A stretch of 64,000 nt of DNA from an uncultured Candidatus Saccharibacteria bacterium (GTDB lineage Bacteria > Patescibacteriota > Dojkabacteria > SC72): contig CAZSUV010000001.1 in the NCBI GenBank assembly GCA_964610125.1, positions 120,035-184,034 on the forward strand, given 5' to 3'. A model generated the notes under the pieces. The model made no database searches. It was not told the origin of the DNA and worked only from the letters and a program-made list of their open reading frames with translations. The position numbers and the translations under genes were made by a program. Shown here piece by piece: positions 9,344 through 51,802 of this stretch. Positions within the stretch are counted from its first letter, which is position 1; the number at the start of each line of letters is the position of its first letter.

Positions 9344-10306
9344 ATGGAAGCTTTTAAAGATATTAAAGTAGTAATTAAAGAAGAGAATGAAAACTATGGA
9401 ATGTTTGAAATATCTCCTCTCCCAAGAGGATATGGTCATACATTAGGCAATGCATTGAGAAGAATCTTGTACTCCAGTCTTAAAGGAACAGGAATCACTA
9501 GTGTAAAAGTCAAAGGTGTAGATCATGAATATTCAACATTGGACGGTGTTAAAGAGAATGTTGTAGATATAATCATGAATCTTAAGCAGATCAAATTCAA
9601 AACAGGTGTAGATGAGAAATTTACATGTAAGATTTCGGTAAAAGGAAAGAAAGTTGTAACGGCAGGAGATATAGAAGTATCTGGAGATTTGGAAGTTGTA
9701 AACAAAGATTTGGTATTAGCAACATTGACTGATGCAGGATCAAAATTAGAAATGGAATTAACAGTAGAATCAGGAGTTGGTTACAGAGATGTCAAGAATG
9801 CAGAAAGAAAAGAAGTTGGATTGATTCCTTTGGATTGTGATTTCACACCAATCGAAAAGATTAGCTTAAGCGTAGAACAAGCTCGTAAGGGACAGGAAAC
9901 TGACTTGGATGCAGTATTGCTAGGAGTCACAACCGATGGTAGCATTACACCTAAAGATGCATTGGTAGAATCTTCAAAGATTCTTCAAGAATTTGCAGGG
10001 AAAGTAATGGTAGCTATGGGAATGTCTCAGAAGGAAGTAGTTGAATTAGCAGAAGAAGCAAATAAAGCAGAAGTCGTCGCAGAAACAACATCTGAAGAGA
10101 GTGACGAAATTGGATCATGGAAAGTTGAAGATTTGCCAATTTCGAAGAGATCTAAAACAGGTCTATTAGCTGGTGGGTACAAGACTATTGCAGATTTGAG
10201 AAATACAACAGCAACTGAACTATTGAACTTACCTGGATTTGGAAACAAATCATTGAATGAAGTTATCGAACTTTTAAATCAGTACGGTGTTAATATTAAG
10301 AACTAA
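9344..10306 (+). CDS. rpoA: DNA-directed RNA polymerase subunit alpha
   Basis: 320 aa; N-terminal dimerisation domain; C-terminal HhH domain (NLPGFGNKSLNEV). Confidence 0.95.
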   Translation: MEAFKDIKVVIKEENENYGMFEISPLPRGYGHTLGNALRRILYSSLKGTGITSVKVKGVDHEYSTLDGVKENVVDIIMNLKQIKFKTGVDEKFTCKISVKGKKVVTAGDIEVSGDLEVVNKDLVLATLTDAGSKLEMELTVESGVGYRDVKNAERKEVGLIPLDCDFTPIEKISLSVEQARKGQETDLDAVLLGVTTDGSITPKDALVESSKILQEFAGKVMVAMGMSQKEVVELAEEANKAEVVAETTSEESDEIGSWKVEDLPISKRSKTGLLAGGYKTIADLRNTTATELLNLPGFGNKSLNEVIELLNQYGVNIKN

Positions 10307-12652: not shown

Positions 12653-12960
12653 GGGCGCAAGTATTCCTAGATGATTGCTCTTGCTATTTTGGTGAGAGAG
12701 GAAAGTCCGGACTCTATGTCGGTCTCGAATATCTCGAGATAGGTGCCAGCGTGAGCTGGAAGGGAGTGATCTTTTGGTTAAAAGGGCAACAGAAAGTTAT
12801 ACCGCCTCGAAAGAGGTAAGGGTGAAATGGTGGTGTAAGAGACCACCGGGTATTGTAGTAATACAATATTGCGAGGCAACCCCCACCTAGAGCAAGGTTA
12901 AAACCGCTTAGATAGATAATCATCATAAACAGAATTCGGCTTATTGGGTGCTTGCGCACT
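12653..12960 (+). ncRNA. rnpB: RNase P RNA, bacterial type A
   Basis: Conserved GAGGAAAGTCCGG (P4 5' strand), AGGGTGAAATGGTGGTGTAAGAGACCACC (CR-II/III) and ACAGAATTCGGCTTAT (P4 3' strand/CR-V). The P1 helix pairs GGGCGCAAG at 12653-12661 with CTTGCGC at 12951-12957. The track ORF 12714..12959(-) is spurious. Confidence 0.85.
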
Positions 12961-15852: not shown

Positions 15853-16881
15853 ATGAATATACAAGATTTTGGTAAAAAGTTTGTCTTCATGCCTGATGCC
15901 ACGAGAGGTGCGGTTAGATTTCTTACAACTGAGCAACTTAAAGCTACGAAAACGGAGGCGATTGTTACCAACACGTTACATTTGTTAATGAATCCTGGTC
16001 CTGAAAGAATGAAGGAACTAGGAGGTATTAAGAAGCTAATGAATTGGGATGGCGTTGTTCTAACAGATTCGGGAGGATTTCAGGTATTTTCATTGATACA
16101 TTCAGGGAAGTGGAAGGGTAAGGTACATGAAGATGGTGCTACTTTTTACTCACCTTGGACAGGAGATAGGTATGATTTAACTCCTGAGAGTTCAATTGAT
16201 ATCCAAATGAAGATAGACTCAGATATTTTGGTTACGTTAGATGATTGTAGAGGTACAGACTTGAGTAGAGAAGAAGCAGAACAATCTGTAGAGAGGACAA
16301 TTAAATGGGCGAAGCGATGTAAAGACCACTTTGAAAATGTATATGGTGGTACTAAAGAGACGGGAAAGCTTTTAAGTTGTGTAGTACAAGGTGCTAATTT
16401 CTCAGATTTAAGAAAGAAGTGTGCAGAAGAATTAACTAAGATAGGGTTTGATGGATATAACTTTGGAGGGTTTGTGGTGGATAAAGAGGGAGAGTTGGTG
16501 ATTGATGAAATGAAAGCGGTTATAGATAATACGCCAAAGGATAAGTTTAAATATGCGATGGGAGTGGGTAAACCTGAAGATATTCGTAGAGCTGCAAAGA
16601 TTGGATATACAGTATTTGATACTGTACTCGTTACTAGGAATGCTAGACATGGTACTTTGTATTCTTCGGATATTGAAGATGAGGTTTTAAGGATTACTAA
16701 TCAGGATTATGCTACTGATGAGAGGCCTATTGATTCTAAATGTGATTGCTATACTTGTAAGAATCATAGTAGGGCATATGTACATCAAATGCTTAAGGTG
16801 GGCGAAGCTACAGGTATGACCTTAGCTACAATACACAATTTGAGATATTACCAAAGGTTGATAGAAGAATTAAATAAATAG
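15853..16881 (+). CDS. tgt: Queuine tRNA-ribosyltransferase
   Basis: TIM-barrel Tgt; zinc site CDCYTCKNHSRAYVHQM; 342 aa. Confidence 0.9.
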   Translation: MNIQDFGKKFVFMPDATRGAVRFLTTEQLKATKTEAIVTNTLHLLMNPGPERMKELGGIKKLMNWDGVVLTDSGGFQVFSLIHSGKWKGKVHEDGATFYSPWTGDRYDLTPESSIDIQMKIDSDILVTLDDCRGTDLSREEAEQSVERTIKWAKRCKDHFENVYGGTKETGKLLSCVVQGANFSDLRKKCAEELTKIGFDGYNFGGFVVDKEGELVIDEMKAVIDNTPKDKFKYAMGVGKPEDIRRAAKIGYTVFDTVLVTRNARHGTLYSSDIEDEVLRITNQDYATDERPIDSKCDCYTCKNHSRAYVHQMLKVGEATGMTLATIHNLRYYQRLIEELNK

Positions 16882-16884
16882 ATA

Positions 16885-17409
16885 CTAGGAATTATTTCTT
16901 AAGAAATCTTCCCTTATTTTCTCAAATAACTCTTTTCTTCCATCTCTTCCAAGGCTTAATGCCCAATTCCAAGCGGATTCATAATCATAGACACCTTTTC
17001 GAGCTTTTTCTACAAGGATTTGTTCATCTGCAAACTTTTTACCATATAGGTCTGTCCAGACGTCAAAAATAATTAAATCATTAATTTGTTCTGCGTCATA
17101 TTCATTTTGGCATTCCTCGAAACCAAAAAATAAACGGTGTCCAAGCTCATGAATTAGAGTAGCTTTCTTAGTGTTGTGAGGATAACTTGCTCTTAGATGC
17201 ATTGCATCGCCAAGAACTCCAGAACGACTTATACCAACATAGACAATTGCTTTGATATCTTCTTCATGAAATTTACAATCAGAAAGTTCTTCAAATTTCG
17301 CAACAATTTTTTCTCCATCATCTTTCCAGATTTGTGTATATTCGTTGGCTGCTGTTATGAAAGGTTCTTCATTTGGCTCGGGTTCAAACTGCATGTTCAA
17401 ATTCATCAT
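16885..17409 (-). CDS. Hypothetical small zinc metallopeptidase-like protein (HExxH)
   Basis: IHELGHRLFFGFEEC contains HExxH with downstream Glu; 174 aa. Possible distant paralog of the 24093..24728 protein. Confidence 0.55.
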   Translation of the reverse strand: MMNLNMQFEPEPNEEPFITAANEYTQIWKDDGEKIVAKFEELSDCKFHEEDIKAIVYVGISRSGVLGDAMHLRASYPHNTKKATLIHELGHRLFFGFEECQNEYDAEQINDLIIFDVWTDLYGKKFADEQILVEKARKGVYDYESAWNWALSLGRDGRKELFEKIREDFLRNNS

Positions 17410-17647: not shown

Positions 17648-19168
17648 ATGGAAGCATTAGCTATAATTGTTGCCATATTGGCAAGTGCTGGAGGCTCTGT
17701 CGCTGTACTTAAATATGTATTTAAGTGGGTAAATGTAAATAAAATCCCAGAGGCAGAGATAGAAGCAGCCGCAAAGAAAATGATGGGTAAGAAGTTCGAA
17801 GAGGCTGAAGAAGAACTTGCAGAACTAAGAGAGAGAGAAGAGAAGCGACTTAAGGATATGCGAAGAGAAAATACCGAGCATGAAGAAATACTCATCGAAA
17901 GAGAGAAGACCTTAAACAAACGATCTAAAATTTTAGATGACAAGAGCGGAGAATTAGAATCAAAAGAAGGAGAACTAAAAGAAGCTTTGAAGCGAATTGA
18001 AGATACAAGAACTCAACTTAAAACTCAATTAGAAAAGATTTCTGGACTTTCTAGAGAGGAAGCTACAGAGAAATTTAAGAAGGAGATAGAAGAGGATCTT
18101 AAGGGTTTTGAAGCTCAGAAGATCAGACAAGCTGAAAAGAATATTGAAGCTGTAGCTGATGAGAAAGCAAAGCATATTCTTGTTGATTCTATGCAGAGAG
18201 TTGCAACTGACTATGTTGGTGAGACTACAACAAAGAGTATTAAGGTTGAAGATGAAAAGGTTAAGGGAAGAATCATTGGAAAAGAAGGAAGAAATATTAG
18301 AGCATTTGAACAAATCACAGGTGTGGATGTCATCGTTGATGAATCTCCTACATCTATTGGTCTTTCTTCATTTGATCCATTGAGAAGGGAGATAGCTTTT
18401 GTAGCTATGACCAAACTCATTGGAGATGGAAGAATCCACCCAGGAGCTATTGAAGAGTGCGTAAGAAAAGCTAAGAATGAGATTTCATTAGAAATTAAAA
18501 AGAATGGAGAAATTCTTGCTGAAGAAGCAGGATGGCCAGATATTGATATTGGGCTTTTGAAATTAATTGGAAAAATGAAATATCGAACCAGTTATGGTCA
18601 ATCATTGATGTCTCATACAATCGAAGTTGTAAGGCTTGCAGAGGTGTTGGCCGCTGAAGTTGGTGCAGATGTTACCTTAGTAAAGCGAGCTGCATTACTT
18701 CATGATGTCGGAAAGGTGTTGACTCACAAGGTTGATCTTCCTCACCACCATATTTCAGGTCAGGTTGCTAGAAAATATCTTTTGAGCGATAAGCTTGTGA
18801 ATGCAATTGAATCACATCACTTGGATATTGAGCCTACATCTGTCGAAGCTGTACTTGTATATATTGCTGACGCAATTTCTGGATCAAGACCAGGTGCAAG
18901 AAAAGATAGCTACGAACAGTACATACAGAGAATTGAAGGTATCGAAAATGCTGCAAAAGATGTTGCAGGAGACAAGATTGACGATGTATTTGCAATCAGA
19001 GCTGGAAGAGAATTGAGAGTAATTGTTAAGCCAATCATGGTTTCAGATGATGAAGCTAAGGTTATGGCAAAGCAAATAGCTCAAGCAATTGAGAAAACTC
19101 AAAGCTATCCAGGCAATGTTGAAGTCACAGTTATTAGAGAAACAAGGGCAATTGAGGTAGCAAGATAA
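17648..19168 (+). CDS. rny: Ribonuclease Y
   Basis: N-terminal TM helix, coiled coil, KH domain (GRIIGKEGRNIRAFE), HD domain (LLHDVGK); 506 aa. Confidence 0.95.
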   Translation: MEALAIIVAILASAGGSVAVLKYVFKWVNVNKIPEAEIEAAAKKMMGKKFEEAEEELAELREREEKRLKDMRRENTEHEEILIEREKTLNKRSKILDDKSGELESKEGELKEALKRIEDTRTQLKTQLEKISGLSREEATEKFKKEIEEDLKGFEAQKIRQAEKNIEAVADEKAKHILVDSMQRVATDYVGETTTKSIKVEDEKVKGRIIGKEGRNIRAFEQITGVDVIVDESPTSIGLSSFDPLRREIAFVAMTKLIGDGRIHPGAIEECVRKAKNEISLEIKKNGEILAEEAGWPDIDIGLLKLIGKMKYRTSYGQSLMSHTIEVVRLAEVLAAEVGADVTLVKRAALLHDVGKVLTHKVDLPHHHISGQVARKYLLSDKLVNAIESHHLDIEPTSVEAVLVYIADAISGSRPGARKDSYEQYIQRIEGIENAAKDVAGDKIDDVFAIRAGRELRVIVKPIMVSDDEAKVMAKQIAQAIEKTQSYPGNVEVTVIRETRAIEVAR

Positions 19169-23996: not shown

Positions 23997-24071
23997 GCCG
24001 CTATCGTCTAACGGTTAGGACATATGATTCTCAATCATACAACCGGGGTCCGATTCCCCGTAGCGGTACCA
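23997..24071 (+). tRNA. tRNA-Glu (anticodon CUC), CCA encoded
   Basis: Manual cloverleaf: acceptor GCCGCTA/TAGCGGT, D-arm TCGTCTAACGGTTAGGACA, anticodon stem TATGA/TCATA with loop TTCTCAA, T-arm CGGGG-TCCGATT-CCCCG, then ACCA. Confidence 0.8.
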
Positions 24072-25916: not shown

Positions 25917-27212
25917 ATCTTCAATCTTAACTCTTTCTTGCTTCATTGTATCTCTGTCTCTTACTGTTACAGTATTATCTTCTAATGTCTGGTAATCTAC
26001 GGTTATACAGTATGGTGTACCGATTTCATCCTGATATCGATATCGCTTACCAATATTTCCTCTTGCATCCCATACAACCTTTTTGGTATCCGAAAGTTTT
26101 TCAAAGATTTCTCTAGCTTTGTTAACGATTTCTTCTTTGTTAGAGACCAATGGGAATACTGCAGCTTTGTATGCAGCTATTTCAGGATTAATCTTTAATA
26201 TTGTTCGTATTTCACCATTCTCCAATGTCTCTTCCTCGTATGAATCCAAGAGTAAGAACAAGAATGTCCTATCCACACCACCTGAAGTCTCAACAATATT
26301 TGGAATATATTTCTCTCCAGTTTGAGGATCAACATATGAAAGATCTTTCCCAGAGAACTTACTGTGTTGCGTGAGATCGTAATCAGCTCTCCAGTGGATA
26401 CCTTCATTTTCTGCCCATCCCCATGGTGCTAGATATTCAACATCAAATGCTTTTTTAGCATAGAAGACCAATTTCTCCTTAGGATGTTCAAAGAATCTAA
26501 GATTCTCATGCTTTCGGTACAATTTCTTGTAGAAGTTCATTCTTTCTTCCTTCCAATATTCAAAAGATTTTTCCATATCATTTGGATGCACAAAGTACTG
26601 CATATCCCACTGTTCAAATTCTCTAGTTCTAAATGTGAATTTGTTAGGAGTGATTTCATTTCTAAAAGCTTTACCAATCTGTGCAATACCAAAAGGAATT
26701 TGCTGTCTTGTAGAATCAACAACATTCTTGAAATCAAGATATATTGTTTGACATGCTTCACCTCTTAAATATGCAGTTGCTTTCTCTCCTTCGATGACAC
26801 CAACTTCTGTTTTGAAAAGAATATTATATTTTCTTGGTTCTGTGAAATCAGTACCACCACATTTTGGACATTTTCCTTCAATATCCTCAGGTCTAAATCG
26901 TGCATGACATTTTTTACATTCTATAGATTCATCTGCAAAGTTTTGAACATGACCAGATGCTTCCCATACCTTAGGGTGGGTGATAATGGTACCATCAATA
27001 CCGACGACATTTTCTCGTTTGTCGACCATATTCTTCCACCAATATCTTTTGAGATTGTTTTTCATCTCTACACCTACAGGACCATAGTCATAGAATCCTC
27101 CTATACCGCCATATATTTCAGAGTTTTGAAATATAATACCTCTTCTTTTACTGAGGGATGTGACTTTTTGTAGAAGATCTTCCATAGGTCGAAAGATGAA
27201 ATTAATATTCAT
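25902..27212 (-). CDS. glyQS: Glycine--tRNA ligase, alpha2 (archaeal/eukaryotic-like) type
   Basis: 436 aa class II aaRS with motifs matching dimeric GlyRS (IYGGIGGFYDYGPVG...). Confidence 0.9.
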   Translation of the reverse strand: MNINFIFRPMEDLLQKVTSLSKRRGIIFQNSEIYGGIGGFYDYGPVGVEMKNNLKRYWWKNMVDKRENVVGIDGTIITHPKVWEASGHVQNFADESIECKKCHARFRPEDIEGKCPKCGGTDFTEPRKYNILFKTEVGVIEGEKATAYLRGEACQTIYLDFKNVVDSTRQQIPFGIAQIGKAFRNEITPNKFTFRTREFEQWDMQYFVHPNDMEKSFEYWKEERMNFYKKLYRKHENLRFFEHPKEKLVFYAKKAFDVEYLAPWGWAENEGIHWRADYDLTQHSKFSGKDLSYVDPQTGEKYIPNIVETSGGVDRTFLFLLLDSYEEETLENGEIRTILKINPEIAAYKAAVFPLVSNKEEIVNKAREIFEKLSDTKKVVWDARGNIGKRYRYQDEIGTPYCITVDYQTLEDNTVTVRDRDTMKQERVKIEDLANL

Positions 27213-27293
27213 GATTATATCTTAAAATCTTGTGTAAGGACAGATTATTTATATGATATAATCCTACTATCTTAAATTATATGATTCGTTCCC

Positions 27294-49318: not shown

Positions 49319-50083
49319 TTGTGGCTTAATGAAATGACAGAAACAAAGAAAAGTGAGACTAAAGAGGTGGTCATAAACCTCGATACATTCGCAATTCCTT
49401 TAGCAATAATAATCGCAGGTGTAATAATTGCACTTGGGATATTCTTTGCAAATAAGAATGCAGATACGAAGGGTACGGCGAATACGAATGATACGACTAA
49501 TACAGATACCACAGGGGATACCTACAAATCAGCTACAACTACGATAGCTGACGGTGCTGTATTGGGAAATAGGGATAAGGCAAAGGTTGCTATAGTTATG
49601 TACAGTGACTATCAGTGTCCATATTGTCAGACTTTTGAGAAGGATACCCTGTCTGATATTGTGAGTAATTATGTTGATACCGATCAAGCTATATTTGTAT
49701 TTAGAAACTATCCATTGAGCTTCCATGGTGAGATTACATACAACTCTGCATATGCAGGTGAATGTGTGTTTGATCAATTAGGAAGTGAGAAGCTAAGAGA
49801 ATTCCATAGCAAGACATATTTGGCAAAAGATATGACAGCTGTTAATGCTGTGGCTCAAGAATTAGGCGTAGATATGACCAAGTACAATACTTGTGTAACC
49901 AATCAAACATTCAAGAGCAGGGTAGATGCAGACTTCGCAGCTGGACAAGCTGCTGGAGTCTCAGGTACCCCAGGATTTGTTGTTGGAACTTTGGATGGCG
50001 ATAAGGTAACAGGGAAGCTTATCGAAGGAGCGTATCCATTTGCTTCATTCAAGGCAGTAATAGATGAGATGTTAGCTAAGTAG
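49319..50083 (+). CDS. DsbA-like thiol:disulfide oxidoreductase, membrane-anchored
   Basis: N-terminal TM; thioredoxin-fold active site CPYC; 254 aa. Confidence 0.8.
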   Translation: MWLNEMTETKKSETKEVVINLDTFAIPLAIIIAGVIIALGIFFANKNADTKGTANTNDTTNTDTTGDTYKSATTTIADGAVLGNRDKAKVAIVMYSDYQCPYCQTFEKDTLSDIVSNYVDTDQAIFVFRNYPLSFHGEITYNSAYAGECVFDQLGSEKLREFHSKTYLAKDMTAVNAVAQELGVDMTKYNTCVTNQTFKSRVDADFAAGQAAGVSGTPGFVVGTLDGDKVTGKLIEGAYPFASFKAVIDEMLAK

Positions 50084-50091
50084 AACCCCAT

Positions 50092-50119
50092 CCCAGGACT
50101 GACCTAGGTCAGTCCTGGG
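50092..50119. repeat. Perfect 28 bp palindrome CCCAGGACTGACCTAGGTCAGTCCTGGG (REP-like/IS end hairpin, left)
   Basis: Seen directly. The core GGACTGACCTAGGTCAGTCC recurs at 50625-50644 on the other side of the transposase gene. Confidence 0.85.
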
Positions 50120-50159
50120 GTTCATTCAGATTTAATAACCCAGTGCTACAATTGGGTTT

Positions 50160-50636
50160 ATGAAGAAAATCCCAGTCATCAAACTGTATAGAAGTGAAAA
50201 CTTCTACCATATATACAATAGAGGCAATAACAAAGCCTTAATTTGCCGTACCTATAAGGATTACATTGCTCTTAGAGGATTGATGTATAGATTTATCAAG
50301 GAAAAGAGGCTACTTCTTGTATGTTACTGCTTCATGCCAAACCATTTCCATCTAATTATCAAACTTAGAGATGATTTGGAGGGGATTTCAAAATTCATGC
50401 GGGCATATATGACATCATATGTCATGTATTTCAATAGAAGATATCGAAGAGTTGGACATCTTTTTCAAAGTCCATTTCAAGCGAGAAGAATTGAAGATGA
50501 TAGGGATTTACATAAGGTAATAGAATACATTAAACAGAACCCAGTGGAAGCAGGATTAATCTCATCTAAAACAGGCCTCAAATACCGATGGTTATTTGTA
50601 AAAAGGACATTCTATAGGAGGGGAGGACTGACCTAG
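50160..50636 (+). mobile_element. tnpA: HUH Y1 single-strand transposase gene (IS200/IS605 TnpA or RAYT-like), 158 aa
   Basis: HuH motif PNHFHLII; catalytic Tyr helix EYIKQNPVEAG; size typical of Y1 transposases; bracketed by identical palindromes. Confidence 0.75.
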
Positions 50637-50645
50637 GTCAGTCCT
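50624..50645. repeat. Perfect 22 bp palindrome AGGACTGACCTAGGTCAGTCCT (right copy). It overlaps the tnpA stop codon.
   Basis: Seen directly. It matches the core of the left palindrome. Confidence 0.85.
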
Positions 50646-50656
50646 AATAAGGTCAG

Positions 50657-51802
50657 TTATTTTTTCTTTCCTTTGTTCCAGGCTTCTAATTTCATTCTGA
50701 TGAAGGCTCCAACGGCTGTGGACATTAGGGCTACTGAGTAGAAGAATCCTATGAATGGTACGAGCCCAACCAATACAGAGATTAATCGTCCAATGGCTAG
50801 TGATTTAAATGGTCTGTACCCTTCTGATTTGAGCAAATGTAATATCTTTTGTCCAAATGCAGTTTCAACCCACAACTGACCAAAGATGGTGAGGAACAAG
50901 ATCAATCCAAATACAAAGAATGCTAATGGAAGACCTACTAATGAAATACTTAGTAAAAGTAATGCTACTGGAGCAACTACTAGAACCGCAAATCCGATTA
51001 ACAAACTAAAGATGAAATCTTTTGGACTTCCAGTAATCTTTGCCATGATCTTACCTGTTTTAACAGGTGCAGAAGCAATCATTACATATCCAACTAAACT
51101 CAAGCTACAGAATGAGAAGAGAGCTCCAAATAGCTTGTCTGTCCAGTTCGTTGCATATACCTTTGGAGTATTGAGATCAACCTCTTTATCAAAGATTACA
51201 CCTTGTTCTTTAGCAATATTCTCAATTATTACAGAATCATATATATTTCCAGTGACTTTTTCTTCTTGTAAGCTATATTTGCTTCCTAAGATTATTAAAT
51301 CTCCTTTGATTAACGTATCGATTGTTCCATCGCTTGTAATGAATCTTGCATCATCACCAACTGAGCCAGTTAGGCTTGTTCTCATAGCTATATTTACATA
51401 GTCTTTTTCTACATTTCCACTAAAGTTTACTGAGGAACCGATGGTATATGCATTAGCTTTTACAATCCCTTGGATAGAGATGTCATTACCTACAGCTACG
51501 AGATTCCCATACGTATTTCCGGTGAATGTAATATTTGAACCCACAACATATACATCTCCAGTAATTGTTCCTGTGATTTTTACATCTGTAGCAGCAATGA
51601 AGAGGTCTCCTTGAACTAGACCATTAATCTCTGTGTAGCTGTTTGTTACATAGAGATCATCTGCAACGGTTTGATCTTGGTTTAAGGTGTAATCCTTAAA
51701 GTGAAATTCTGCAGCATTGGCTGGTTTTGTAGCTACGATACCGATGAGTACTGTTAGCAAAGGAATTGCTAATATACTTAAGAGTCTTTTTGAAATGGAC
51801 AT
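50657..51802 (-). CDS. Membrane protein with an extracytoplasmic beta-helical repeat domain (bactofilin/DUF4097-like) and a C-terminal polytopic region
   Basis: Signal peptide; repeated V/I-x-G-x-V/I hexapeptide-like strands (ITGTITGDVYVVGSNITFTGNTYGNLVAVGNDISIQG...); then about 5 TM helices; 381 aa. Confidence 0.55.
   Translation of the reverse strand: MSISKRLLSILAIPLLTVLIGIVATKPANAAEFHFKDYTLNQDQTVADDLYVTNSYTEINGLVQGDLFIAATDVKITGTITGDVYVVGSNITFTGNTYGNLVAVGNDISIQGIVKANAYTIGSSVNFSGNVEKDYVNIAMRTSLTGSVGDDARFITSDGTIDTLIKGDLIILGSKYSLQEEKVTGNIYDSVIIENIAKEQGVIFDKEVDLNTPKVYATNWTDKLFGALFSFCSLSLVGYVMIASAPVKTGKIMAKITGSPKDFIFSLLIGFAVLVVAPVALLLLSISLVGLPLAFFVFGLILFLTIFGQLWVETAFGQKILHLLKSEGYRPFKSLAIGRLISVLVGLVPFIGFFYSVALMSTAVGAFIRMKLEAWNKGKKK

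Follow-up and report, generated by a model that had tools for sequence, protein, structure and literature searches.

A probable REPtron-like locus in a Dojkabacteria genome: a vertically inherited, RAYT-like Y1 gene between matching palindromes

A 64,000-nucleotide stretch of contig CAZSUV010000001.1 from an uncultured Dojkabacteria bacterium (the window, taken at its full length) contains a compact unit of ~560 bp in which a hairpin, a promoter-like site, a gene for a 158-residue Y1 enzyme of the HUH type and a second hairpin follow one another between convergent dsbA-like and DUF8173 genes (Table 1). We consider it likely that this unit is a REPtron-like locus, in which the gene for a class-2 Y1 HUH enzyme is present in single copy, is inherited vertically and is flanked by its cognate, atypical repetitive extragenic palindromes (REPs). 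An earlier note, made from the sequence and its open reading frames (ORFs), had proposed that the ORF carries an HUH motif and a C-terminal tyrosine helix, that the same palindrome lies on both flanks (28 bp on the left, 22 bp across the stop codon on the right) and that the unit sits between the convergent ends of dsbA and a membrane-protein gene; the ORF, its motifs, the palindromes and the two neighbours are all confirmed. Its preference for domestication of the kind known from REPs and REP-associated tyrosine transposases (RAYTs) over a classical IS200 insertion sequence (IS) likewise holds, on class-2 motifs, a predicted fold like that of 4ER8, synteny in seven genomes and a low ratio of nonsynonymous to synonymous substitution rates (dN/dS).

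The ORF contains PNHFHLII and EYIKQNPVEAG, and the proposed search with the Pfam Y1_Tnp model (PF01797) matches residues 16–127 at 38.5 bits, above the cut-off of 23. Its sole NCBIfam match, nearly full length and scoring 59.8 bits, is REP_Tyr_transpos (NF047646). An alignment of 52 homologues shows no variation at Y16, H17, N20, R21, N61, H62, H64, N92, G99, Y123 or N127 and at least 90% conservation of P128; the wider family reaches 21,257 representative clusters when E ≤ 1e-3 is required and 6,491 when the limit is E ≤ 1e-10. IS200 transposases (subclass 1.1) are characterized by DH[VI]H and Y---Q, and class 2, the TnpA_REP/RAYT side of the family, by Y---NP (Quentin et al. 2018, PMC6006769). 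The window protein carries NHFH, [F/W]Q and YIKQNP, by which it is assigned to class 2, and the subclass 1.1 motifs DH[VI]H and Y[IV]ENQ are absent from it. With phmmer the best PDB match, weak (E 0.15) and spanning the domain, is E. coli TnpA_REP (4ER8), in which Y115, presumably the catalytic tyrosine, aligns with Y123 of the window protein. An AlphaFold2 model (pLDDT 91.8, pTM 0.86) also returns 4ER8 as the top PDB match in Foldseek, with TM scores of 0.70/0.68 and a root-mean-square deviation of 3.3 Å over 146 columns; the ISDra2, IS608 and IS200 transposases score lower (TM about 0.47–0.55, with IS608 and ISDra2 at about 0.53–0.55), and all of the top 25 PDB matches are Y1 transposases. 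By motif and by predicted fold, the Y1 protein is RAYT-like rather than IS200-like.

These features bear directly on a competing explanation, namely that the unit is an active, autonomous IS of the IS200 type, at ~560 bp among the smallest, with the hairpins as its left and right ends and one copy in the genome. We regard this as quite unlikely. The succession of hairpin, internal promoter, Y1 gene of ~150 residues and hairpin is indeed IS200-like in its geometry, but NHFH and Y---NP replace DH[VI]H and Y---Q, and the fold lies nearer to TnpA_REP than to the transposases of IS608, ISDra2 and IS200.

The palindromes that flank the gene share an identical core. The left one, CCCAGGACTGACCTAGGTCAGTCCTGGG, is a perfect 28-mer (50092–50119) separated by 8 nt from the stop codon of the dsbA-like gene, and the 22-mer AGGACTGACCTAGGTCAGTCCT is present exactly at both 50095–50116 and 50624–50645. 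With up to three mismatches allowed, a 20-nt core has two matches in the 64 kb and none in 100 shuffles. The palindromes are G+C-rich and stand out because the window has a G+C content of only 34.5%. Folded as single-stranded DNA, the left hairpin, whose stem can be extended to 50084–50122, reaches −15.2 kcal/mol (z −6.0) and the right hairpin −8.4 kcal/mol (z −2.9). Downstream of the right hairpin an extra half-site, AGGTCAGT, could pair with ACTGACCT (50627–34) to form an alternative terminator-like stem; the stretch made up of this half-site and a T-run overlaps the DUF8173 stop codon (50657–59, minus strand) and is partly conserved among the closest orthologues. A scan for terminator consensus calls neither hairpin nor this stretch, and an Rfam search of the Y1 locus in the window gives no match except a chance one to mir-14 (E 0.65). 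A GTAG at 50080–83 belongs to the dsbA stop-codon context and is not conserved.

Comparison with related genomes indicates that the unit has stayed where it is for a long time. The identical Y1 protein and its relatives at 91, 87, 65 and 61% identity are all encoded in the order abhydrolase, dsbA, Y1, DUF8173, and across seven genomes the identity of the Y1 protein (61–91%) falls in step with that of dsbA (52–94%) and DUF8173 (56–93%). The dN/dS of the Y1 gene, estimated by the Nei–Gojobori method, is 0.06–0.18 with dS ranging from 0.5 to saturation, and the reading frame is intact in 7/7 orthologues. The 20-nt core is identical in six of the seven left copies, the seventh differing at 2/20 positions, and in the right copies of the four closest loci; on the right side of the three more distant loci, A-to-T changes are seen at W positions (GGTCTGACCTAGGTCTGTCC in loci L009 and L014, GGTCTGACCTAGGTCTATCC in L022). 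Each protein variant was seen in a single genomic context, across up to 67 data blocks, and none of the loci or contigs examined contains a second copy of the unit. At the level of sequence, then, the unit is an old insertion that has been inherited vertically, fixed in place and under strong purifying selection since it inserted, and is not actively jumping. The expectation of the earlier note that the locus would serve as a marker of genome plasticity is not borne out: it is instead a marker of long-term stability.

The same observations weigh on two alternatives. An active IS is at odds with one context per protein variant, with synteny maintained down to ~52% neighbour identity and with so low a dN/dS, and active IS copies are normally multi-copy and ~99% identical (PMC6006769). 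It is highly improbable that the gene is an inert relic, a transposase gene that is dead but has so far escaped decay; its single copy, the lack of visible recent movement of the full unit and a score below the NCBIfam equivalog cut-off would suit such a relic, but the frame is intact in all seven orthologues, the catalytic residues are invariant, dN/dS stays low even at saturated dS, and the promoter geometry is conserved.

Two more distant relatives, whose DUF8173 proteins are 50% and 46% identical to that of the window, retain the arrangement of abhydrolase followed by convergent dsbA and DUF8173 without a Y1 gene, and thus provide the empty sites that the earlier note had suggested seeking. 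Their dsbA/DUF8173 gaps of 72 nt and 56 nt consist of an A-run, a GC-hairpin and a T-run, that is, a bidirectional terminator, and the palindrome was not found in either gap, so the hairpins arrived with the unit. In one Y1-free relative a further 20.7 kb takes in the rplL/7TM and M50/L28 regions, both occupied in other lineages, yet contains no hairpin, half-site or Y1 gene. Judged from these comparisons, the ~560-bp unit entered at a convergent terminator in the ancestor of the Dojkabacteria clade of the window and replaced that terminator, for which the hairpins now probably substitute. An attempt to read the exact ends of the unit from occupied and empty sites was abandoned, because divergence of the intergenic sequence has gone too far at all three of dsbA/DUF8173, TGT/RNase Y and glyS/lysS.

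Homologues 44–51% identical to the window protein lie in three other chromosomal contexts, at tsf/frr (L033), at an M50 peptidase gene (L036–38) and between RNase Y and TGT (L039, in the metagenome-assembled genome (MAG) DATERJ), all flanked by the same hairpin family, GGWCWGACC-TA-GGTCWGWCC. In other lineages too the right hairpin often lies within the last codons (protein tails ..GLT* and ..GQT*), and in DATERJ it even provides the opposing TGT gene with its stop codon. The TGT/RNase Y interval is variable, since it holds the Y1 unit in DATERJ, a 222-nt gap without a hairpin in JAHISI and, in the window (TGT at 15853–16881, RNase Y at 17648–19168), an unrelated 174-aa ORF (16885–17409, minus strand) with an HELGH metalloprotease-like motif; a lone half-site, GGTCTGTCC, at 17049 within this ORF is not significant (0.37 expected by chance). 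Because homologues at 44–51% identity carry the same hairpins at other sites, sequence comparison indicates that the unit has transposed or been transferred, but rarely, and has become fixed within each lineage; the evidence that the full unit moved comes only from comparisons between distant lineages. Presence at four or more chromosomal sites across lineages, together with absence from empty sites, is also what an active IS would produce. A further homologue (P0028, 47% identical) lies after fmt in L068, and its flanks do not match the hairpin motif; a reading of these flanks as terminal inverted repeats was dropped, as the repeat on the downstream side may be part of a gene for a structured RNA. 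Two long hairpins with another sequence flank a 193-aa homologue from Bacteroidota, in keeping with the usual pattern in which each lineage pairs its own REP with its own RAYT.

Structural variation is visible around several of these loci. The Y1 gene of L033 is directly preceded by a tandem array (9653–9952) of three 140-nt units, each with a hairpin variant at its end. In L037 (13258–13450, compared with L036 13258–13354) a hairpin unit between a retroelement reverse transcriptase gene and rpmB has undergone a perfect 96-nt tandem duplication, which must be very recent since both genomes encode an identical Y1 protein (P0017). In L038 (10500–15027, compared with L036/L037 10500–13300) synteny breaks right after the right end of the same Y1 gene; beyond the break lie prophage-like genes (AntA/ANT, DNA polymerase A, Enc34 ssDNA-binding protein) in L038, and in L036/L037 a 323-aa protein, bAvd and a reverse transcriptase in a layout like that of a diversity-generating retroelement.

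The hairpin motif is also found away from Y1 genes. A scan that covered one genome per species, to which a metagenome scan added further sites, locates extra copies in the Y1-carrying Dojkabacteria/WS6 MAGs JAHISI, CAIVJR, LBSF and DATERJ, single or few sites in JAGPFQ, CAZKXP and CAYPAR, and a few chance matches in unrelated taxa; carriage of the hairpin by phages was rejected, as viral contigs give 0 matches. With mismatches allowed, 89 instances occur in the 403 kb of fetched sequence (window plus loci), where shuffles give 0–1, and these collapse to 35 independent hairpin sites. Among the 35, neither the G/C skeleton nor the central ACCTAGGT varies, positions 3/18 and 5/16 carry only A or T and are paired in 19/35 and 15/35 sites, respectively, and the motif is directly preceded by A in 63/70 flanks, with A or G at −2; the GT[AG]G foot is absent from their pooled flanks. 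The earlier note had proposed looking for palindrome copies elsewhere as a sign of REP-like dispersal, and this is borne out in part: the family does recur in sibling genomes, but as a handful per genome, with none other in the window and without a GT[AG]G foot.

Every extra site examined is intergenic and beside housekeeping genes, and the extra hairpins are mostly paired, 77–222 nt apart. One type (B) is a pair between the divergent promoters of glyS and lysS, another (C) lies downstream of rplL, with a hairpin at the same place in the distant L036 lineage, a third (D) is a pair 77 nt apart, and several further types occur in DATERJ. Spacers show no homology between site types except among orthologues and DATERJ paralogues, and Rfam gives no match in the glyS/lysS element or the DATERJ elements. 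Two interpretations of these mini-elements were rejected. As remnants of Y1 genes they yield, in blastx against 121 Y1 proteins, one weak match (E 0.001, 29% over 35 aa) that we judge spurious; as a single long hairpin, of the kind formed by a REP doublet forming hairpin (REPIN), they pair only their terminal palindromes in the single-strand folds of three elements (z −4.6, −2.2 and −1.3). The sequence TTTAA, reminiscent of the fixed target of IS200/IS605 elements and in that respect favourable to an active IS, precedes the left hairpin of 4/4 DATERJ/JAGPFQ mini-elements but not the unit of the window. Several extra sites are fixed at orthologous positions between genomes, and the hairpin population as a whole is small and mostly static.

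The window itself has an empty counterpart of the glyS/lysS element. In the relatives L016, L019, L058 and L059, a 242-nt element with two hairpins lies between the two TG-extended −10 boxes of glyS and lysS, and one genome with the element has a DUF8173 protein 94% identical to that of the window. In the window, glyS (27185←25905) and lysS (27294→28835) enclose a gap that retains a 31-nt filler (27221–27251) with a half-site-like AAGGACAGA at 27236–27244. The spacer of the glyS/lysS element (202 nt; L016 3816–4017, also L019, L058 and L059) is ~88% identical where the dS of Y1 is ~0.47, and contains a repeated ATATCGTT motif and gives no match in Rfam; this spacer may represent a regulatory region under constraint, or else a small RNA.

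A second mini-element, of ~185 nt, has the structure TTTAA + GGTCTGACCTAGGTCTGTCC ... GGTCTGACCT(G/A)GACCAGA(C/T)C (L015 548–732, L017 3529–3713, L027 4897–5081). It occupies the intergenic region between an RNA-recognition-motif (RRM) protein gene and typA in two genomes and a second locus upstream of dus in one; its two copies on one DATERJ contig are ~90% identical internally, and its conserved 100-nt centre has no match in Rfam. It may represent a mobile element that is not autonomous, or a gene for a small RNA. Its occurrence at two loci, the tandem hairpin units in L033 and L037 and the absence of the glyS/lysS element from the window are signs of turnover and count in favour of a REPtron-like locus.

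The dispersed sites form the basis of another explanation, in which the palindromes are host elements, either duplex operators for another, dimeric protein or terminators and insulators by housekeeping genes, which the Y1 gene targets or hitch-hikes on without acting on them now. Beside rplL, glyS/lysS, tuf and typA, for instance, many sites are fixed at orthologous positions, and a TG-extended −10 promoter often follows closely; the motif tolerates A/T swaps alone and frequently loses its pairing where they occur, which suits recognition of a duplex better than a stable hairpin; and the flanking hairpins took the place of a terminator. We nevertheless hold this explanation to be unlikely. The empty dsbA/DUF8173 and TGT/RNase Y sites lack the palindrome, so the hairpins arrived with the gene, and hairpins lie at both ends of the gene in four independent contexts, the right one within the last codons or the stop codon. 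The sampled regions of Y1-free genomes hold no hairpin, and in L036 a hairpin stands beside a separate canonical terminator and is thus not itself the terminator there.

Several observations weigh against a REPtron-like locus and temper our preference for it. At 59.8 bits the Y1 protein misses the REP_Tyr_transpos equivalog cut-off of 80. Beyond the two flanking copies, the 64-kb window contains no further core at ≤3 mismatches, and sibling MAGs carry a tiny number, 3–5 exact-pattern sites each and several more with degenerate partners, far below the counts of classical REP families; extra sites whose position is conserved between genomes are stable rather than visibly mobile. The glyS/lysS site of the window is not a clean hairpin-to-hairpin excision. 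E. coli TnpA_REP requires a GT[AG]G foot and a bulge, neither of which the hairpins have, and the common T.T variant, GGTCTGACCTAGGTCTGTCC, hardly folds (−3.3 kcal/mol, z −0.7). Since about half of the sites are mispaired at positions 3/18 and 5/16, what is conserved may be a duplex sequence rather than a hairpin; mismatches in REPs are, however, essential for their recognition by E. coli TnpA_REP, and mispaired positions therefore do not exclude recognition of a hairpin. Finally, we infer binding, cleavage and mobility by the Y1 protein entirely from its likeness to known systems.

A reading that goes further in the direction of domestication is possible, though we rate it as unlikely: the Y1 protein would be a fully domesticated host factor, its 20-nt target would mark a few intergenic modules by rplL, glyS/lysS, tuf and typA, and its function would belong to chromosome or transcription biology, for example insulation or regulated processing of single-stranded DNA, and not to transposition. 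The 20-nt motif is almost unchanged across the sampled Dojkabacteria lineages while the Y1 protein has diverged to 44% identity. If this reading were true, these genomes would contain the smallest known REP–RAYT population and offer a minimal model of how RAYTs benefit their hosts.

The 5' region suggests how the gene of the putative REPtron-like locus might be expressed. A TG-extended −10 box, TGCTACAAT (50144–50152), ends 7 nt before the ATG, a −10-like hexamer lies 5–8 nt upstream of the ATG in 11/11 Patescibacteria Y1 loci, and a Shine–Dalgarno sequence is not present in any of these 11. The stretch from the left hairpin to the ATG is conserved in orthologues. In a consensus scan promoter-like matches are no commoner than in shuffles (14 vs 11.6), and the promoter call therefore rests on conserved position and not on the scan. 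From the sequence of these loci we infer a leaderless Y1 mRNA that starts from a promoter within the unit. The motif GTTCA(T) occurs 3–20 nt 3' of the left hairpin in 9/10 of the hairpin-flanked Y1 loci compared, across lineages and contexts, with GTTAAC in L022; its distance from the −10 box is too great for a standard −35 element. The loci that have it at this position include the window, L003, L009, L014, L033, L036 and L039.

In the mechanism that we envisage, the Y1 gene would be transcribed from its own TG-extended −10 promoter into a leaderless mRNA, and its protein, by analogy with TnpA_REP, could bind the palindrome where this forms a hairpin in single-stranded DNA, for instance at replication forks. 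The protein might then cleave and rejoin DNA beside the hairpin by means of Y123 and a metal bound by the HUH motif, as E. coli TnpA_REP does with REPs. Such activity may, rarely over evolutionary time, have moved the whole unit and seeded or duplicated hairpin mini-elements; today the Y1 gene would appear to behave like a host gene, and the flanking hairpins probably act as transcription stops or insulators for the convergent neighbours.

Among known systems, E. coli TnpA_REP and its REPtron (Quentin subclass 2.2; 4ER8) share with the locus a single-copy Y1 HUH gene between cognate extragenic palindromes, the Y---NP helix, palindromes also elsewhere in intergenic DNA, vertical inheritance and housekeeping-like selection. 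They differ in that the proteins are only ~16% identical and the REP_Tyr_transpos score is below its cut-off here, the palindromes here are perfect or A/T-mismatched with neither 5' GT[AG]G foot nor bulge, a handful of copies per ~1-Mb genome contrasts with hundreds, and the protein here is core-only, without the E. coli C-terminal tail, with the right hairpin inside its coding end. By motifs and by published description the locus also resembles class-2 subclass 2.6 (Bertels group 5) and subclasses 2.4 and 2.7, which share NH[LIVF]H, [WF]Q and YI..NP, flanking structures without GTAG, further genomic copies and low copy number; those proteins come from Bacteroidetes, Cyanobacteria and a few other phyla and have insertions or tails around cores of 135–146 aa, whereas the Patescibacteria protein here is 158 aa in total (PMC6006769). 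REPINs and bacterial interspersed mosaic elements (BIMEs) are doublets of REPs that RAYTs mobilise; the extra hairpins here, which are mostly paired, the 185-nt hairpin-bounded element at two loci of one genome and the tandem units recall them. The spacers here are nonetheless 77–222 nt long, unrelated between sites and non-palindromic, so that only the end palindromes pair, and the elements are few, many of them fixed at orthologous sites. IS200 of Salmonella and E. coli is ~700 bp long and encodes a TnpA of ~150 aa; it has a left-end hairpin upstream of the gene and subterminal hairpins without inverted terminal repeats, and often lies at the 3' ends of genes. The compactness and hairpin arrangement here are similar, but of the DH[VI]H and Y---Q motifs, the dimeric enzyme and the multiple ~99% identical copies of IS200 we find none.

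RAYT/REP systems, including ones with atypical flanking structures and low 16-mer counts, are already well described. Our literature search returned no description of a RAYT/REP system in Patescibacteria, the one paper containing both terms concerning an archaeal locus. What is unusual here is the very small size, the very low copy number, a hairpin that remains near-constant over deep divergence, and hairpins paired across long, unrelated spacers. Among domesticated transposases of bacteria, RAYTs are a classic example whose benefit to the host is still to be explained, and REPs usually co-diverge with their RAYT, with which the near-constant hairpin here contrasts. If our preferred reading is right, the REPtron arrangement extends to an ultra-small genome of the Candidate Phyla Radiation (CPR)/Patescibacteria in a stripped-down form, with a core-only enzyme, a probably leaderless mRNA and few hairpins. 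For annotation, such "transposase" calls in CPR genomes would denote stable, selected host genes and not signs of recent mobility or assembly problems, and the palindromes can account for contig breaks and missing terminators.

Table 1. Features of the Y1 unit, its neighbours and the empty glyS/lysS site, in window coordinates
Feature	Coordinates	Strand	Basis and remarks
Upstream neighbour, DsbA/thioredoxin-like gene	49319..50083	+	ORF list; orthologues with Pfam Thioredoxin_4/DSBA; synteny in 7 genomes
Left hairpin	50084..50122		28-nt palindrome 50092-50119; shared 22-nt core 50095-50116; outer stem AACCCC/GGGGTT
GTTCAT motif directly 3' of left hairpin	50120..50125	+	Conserved position across Y1 loci
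Promoter-like site inside the unit	50125..50152	+	TTCAGA, 16 nt, TG-extended TACAAT (50147-50152); putative function
Y1 HUH gene, 158 aa, class-2 TnpA_Y1/RAYT-like	50160..50636	+	Pfam PF01797, predicted fold, dN/dS
HUH motif codons H62-F63-H64 (inside PNHFHLII)	50343..50351	+	Alignment of 52 sequences
Catalytic-Tyr helix Y123-I-K-Q-N127-P128, Y---NP signature	50526..50543	+	Alignment; phmmer against 4ER8
Right hairpin, 22-nt perfect palindrome	50624..50645		Encodes last residues G-L-T and the TAG stop (50634-50636)
Extra half-site AGGTCAGT (50650-57), then T-run	50650..50669	+	Read from sequence; putative function
Downstream convergent neighbour, DUF8173 membrane protein	50657..51802	-	Pfam PF26514 on identical protein (L001) and orthologues; protein identical to that of the window, P0121
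Empty glyS/lysS divergent intergenic site of hairpin-bounded mini-element	27186..27293		108 nt here, 356 nt in relatives

Two further observations concern the surroundings of the Y1 sites. Only a few genes separate the dsbA/DUF8173 site from a gene for a Form III-like RuBisCO large subunit (L003 3118–4524; L064 4910–5901; L065 4713–5703); the RuBisCO gene is present in genomes with and without the Y1 unit, and the two are therefore not linked. A 2026 preprint describes a RAYT near rbcL in an archaeon. In the window, Rfam identifies a bacterial RNase P RNA of class A (153.8 bits) and one tRNA, at 12657–12959 and 23997–24068; the Y1 homologue of L068 has fmt on one side and, on the other, ~370 nt of non-coding sequence that may be an RNase P RNA gene, and in the window fmt adjoins the RNase P RNA.

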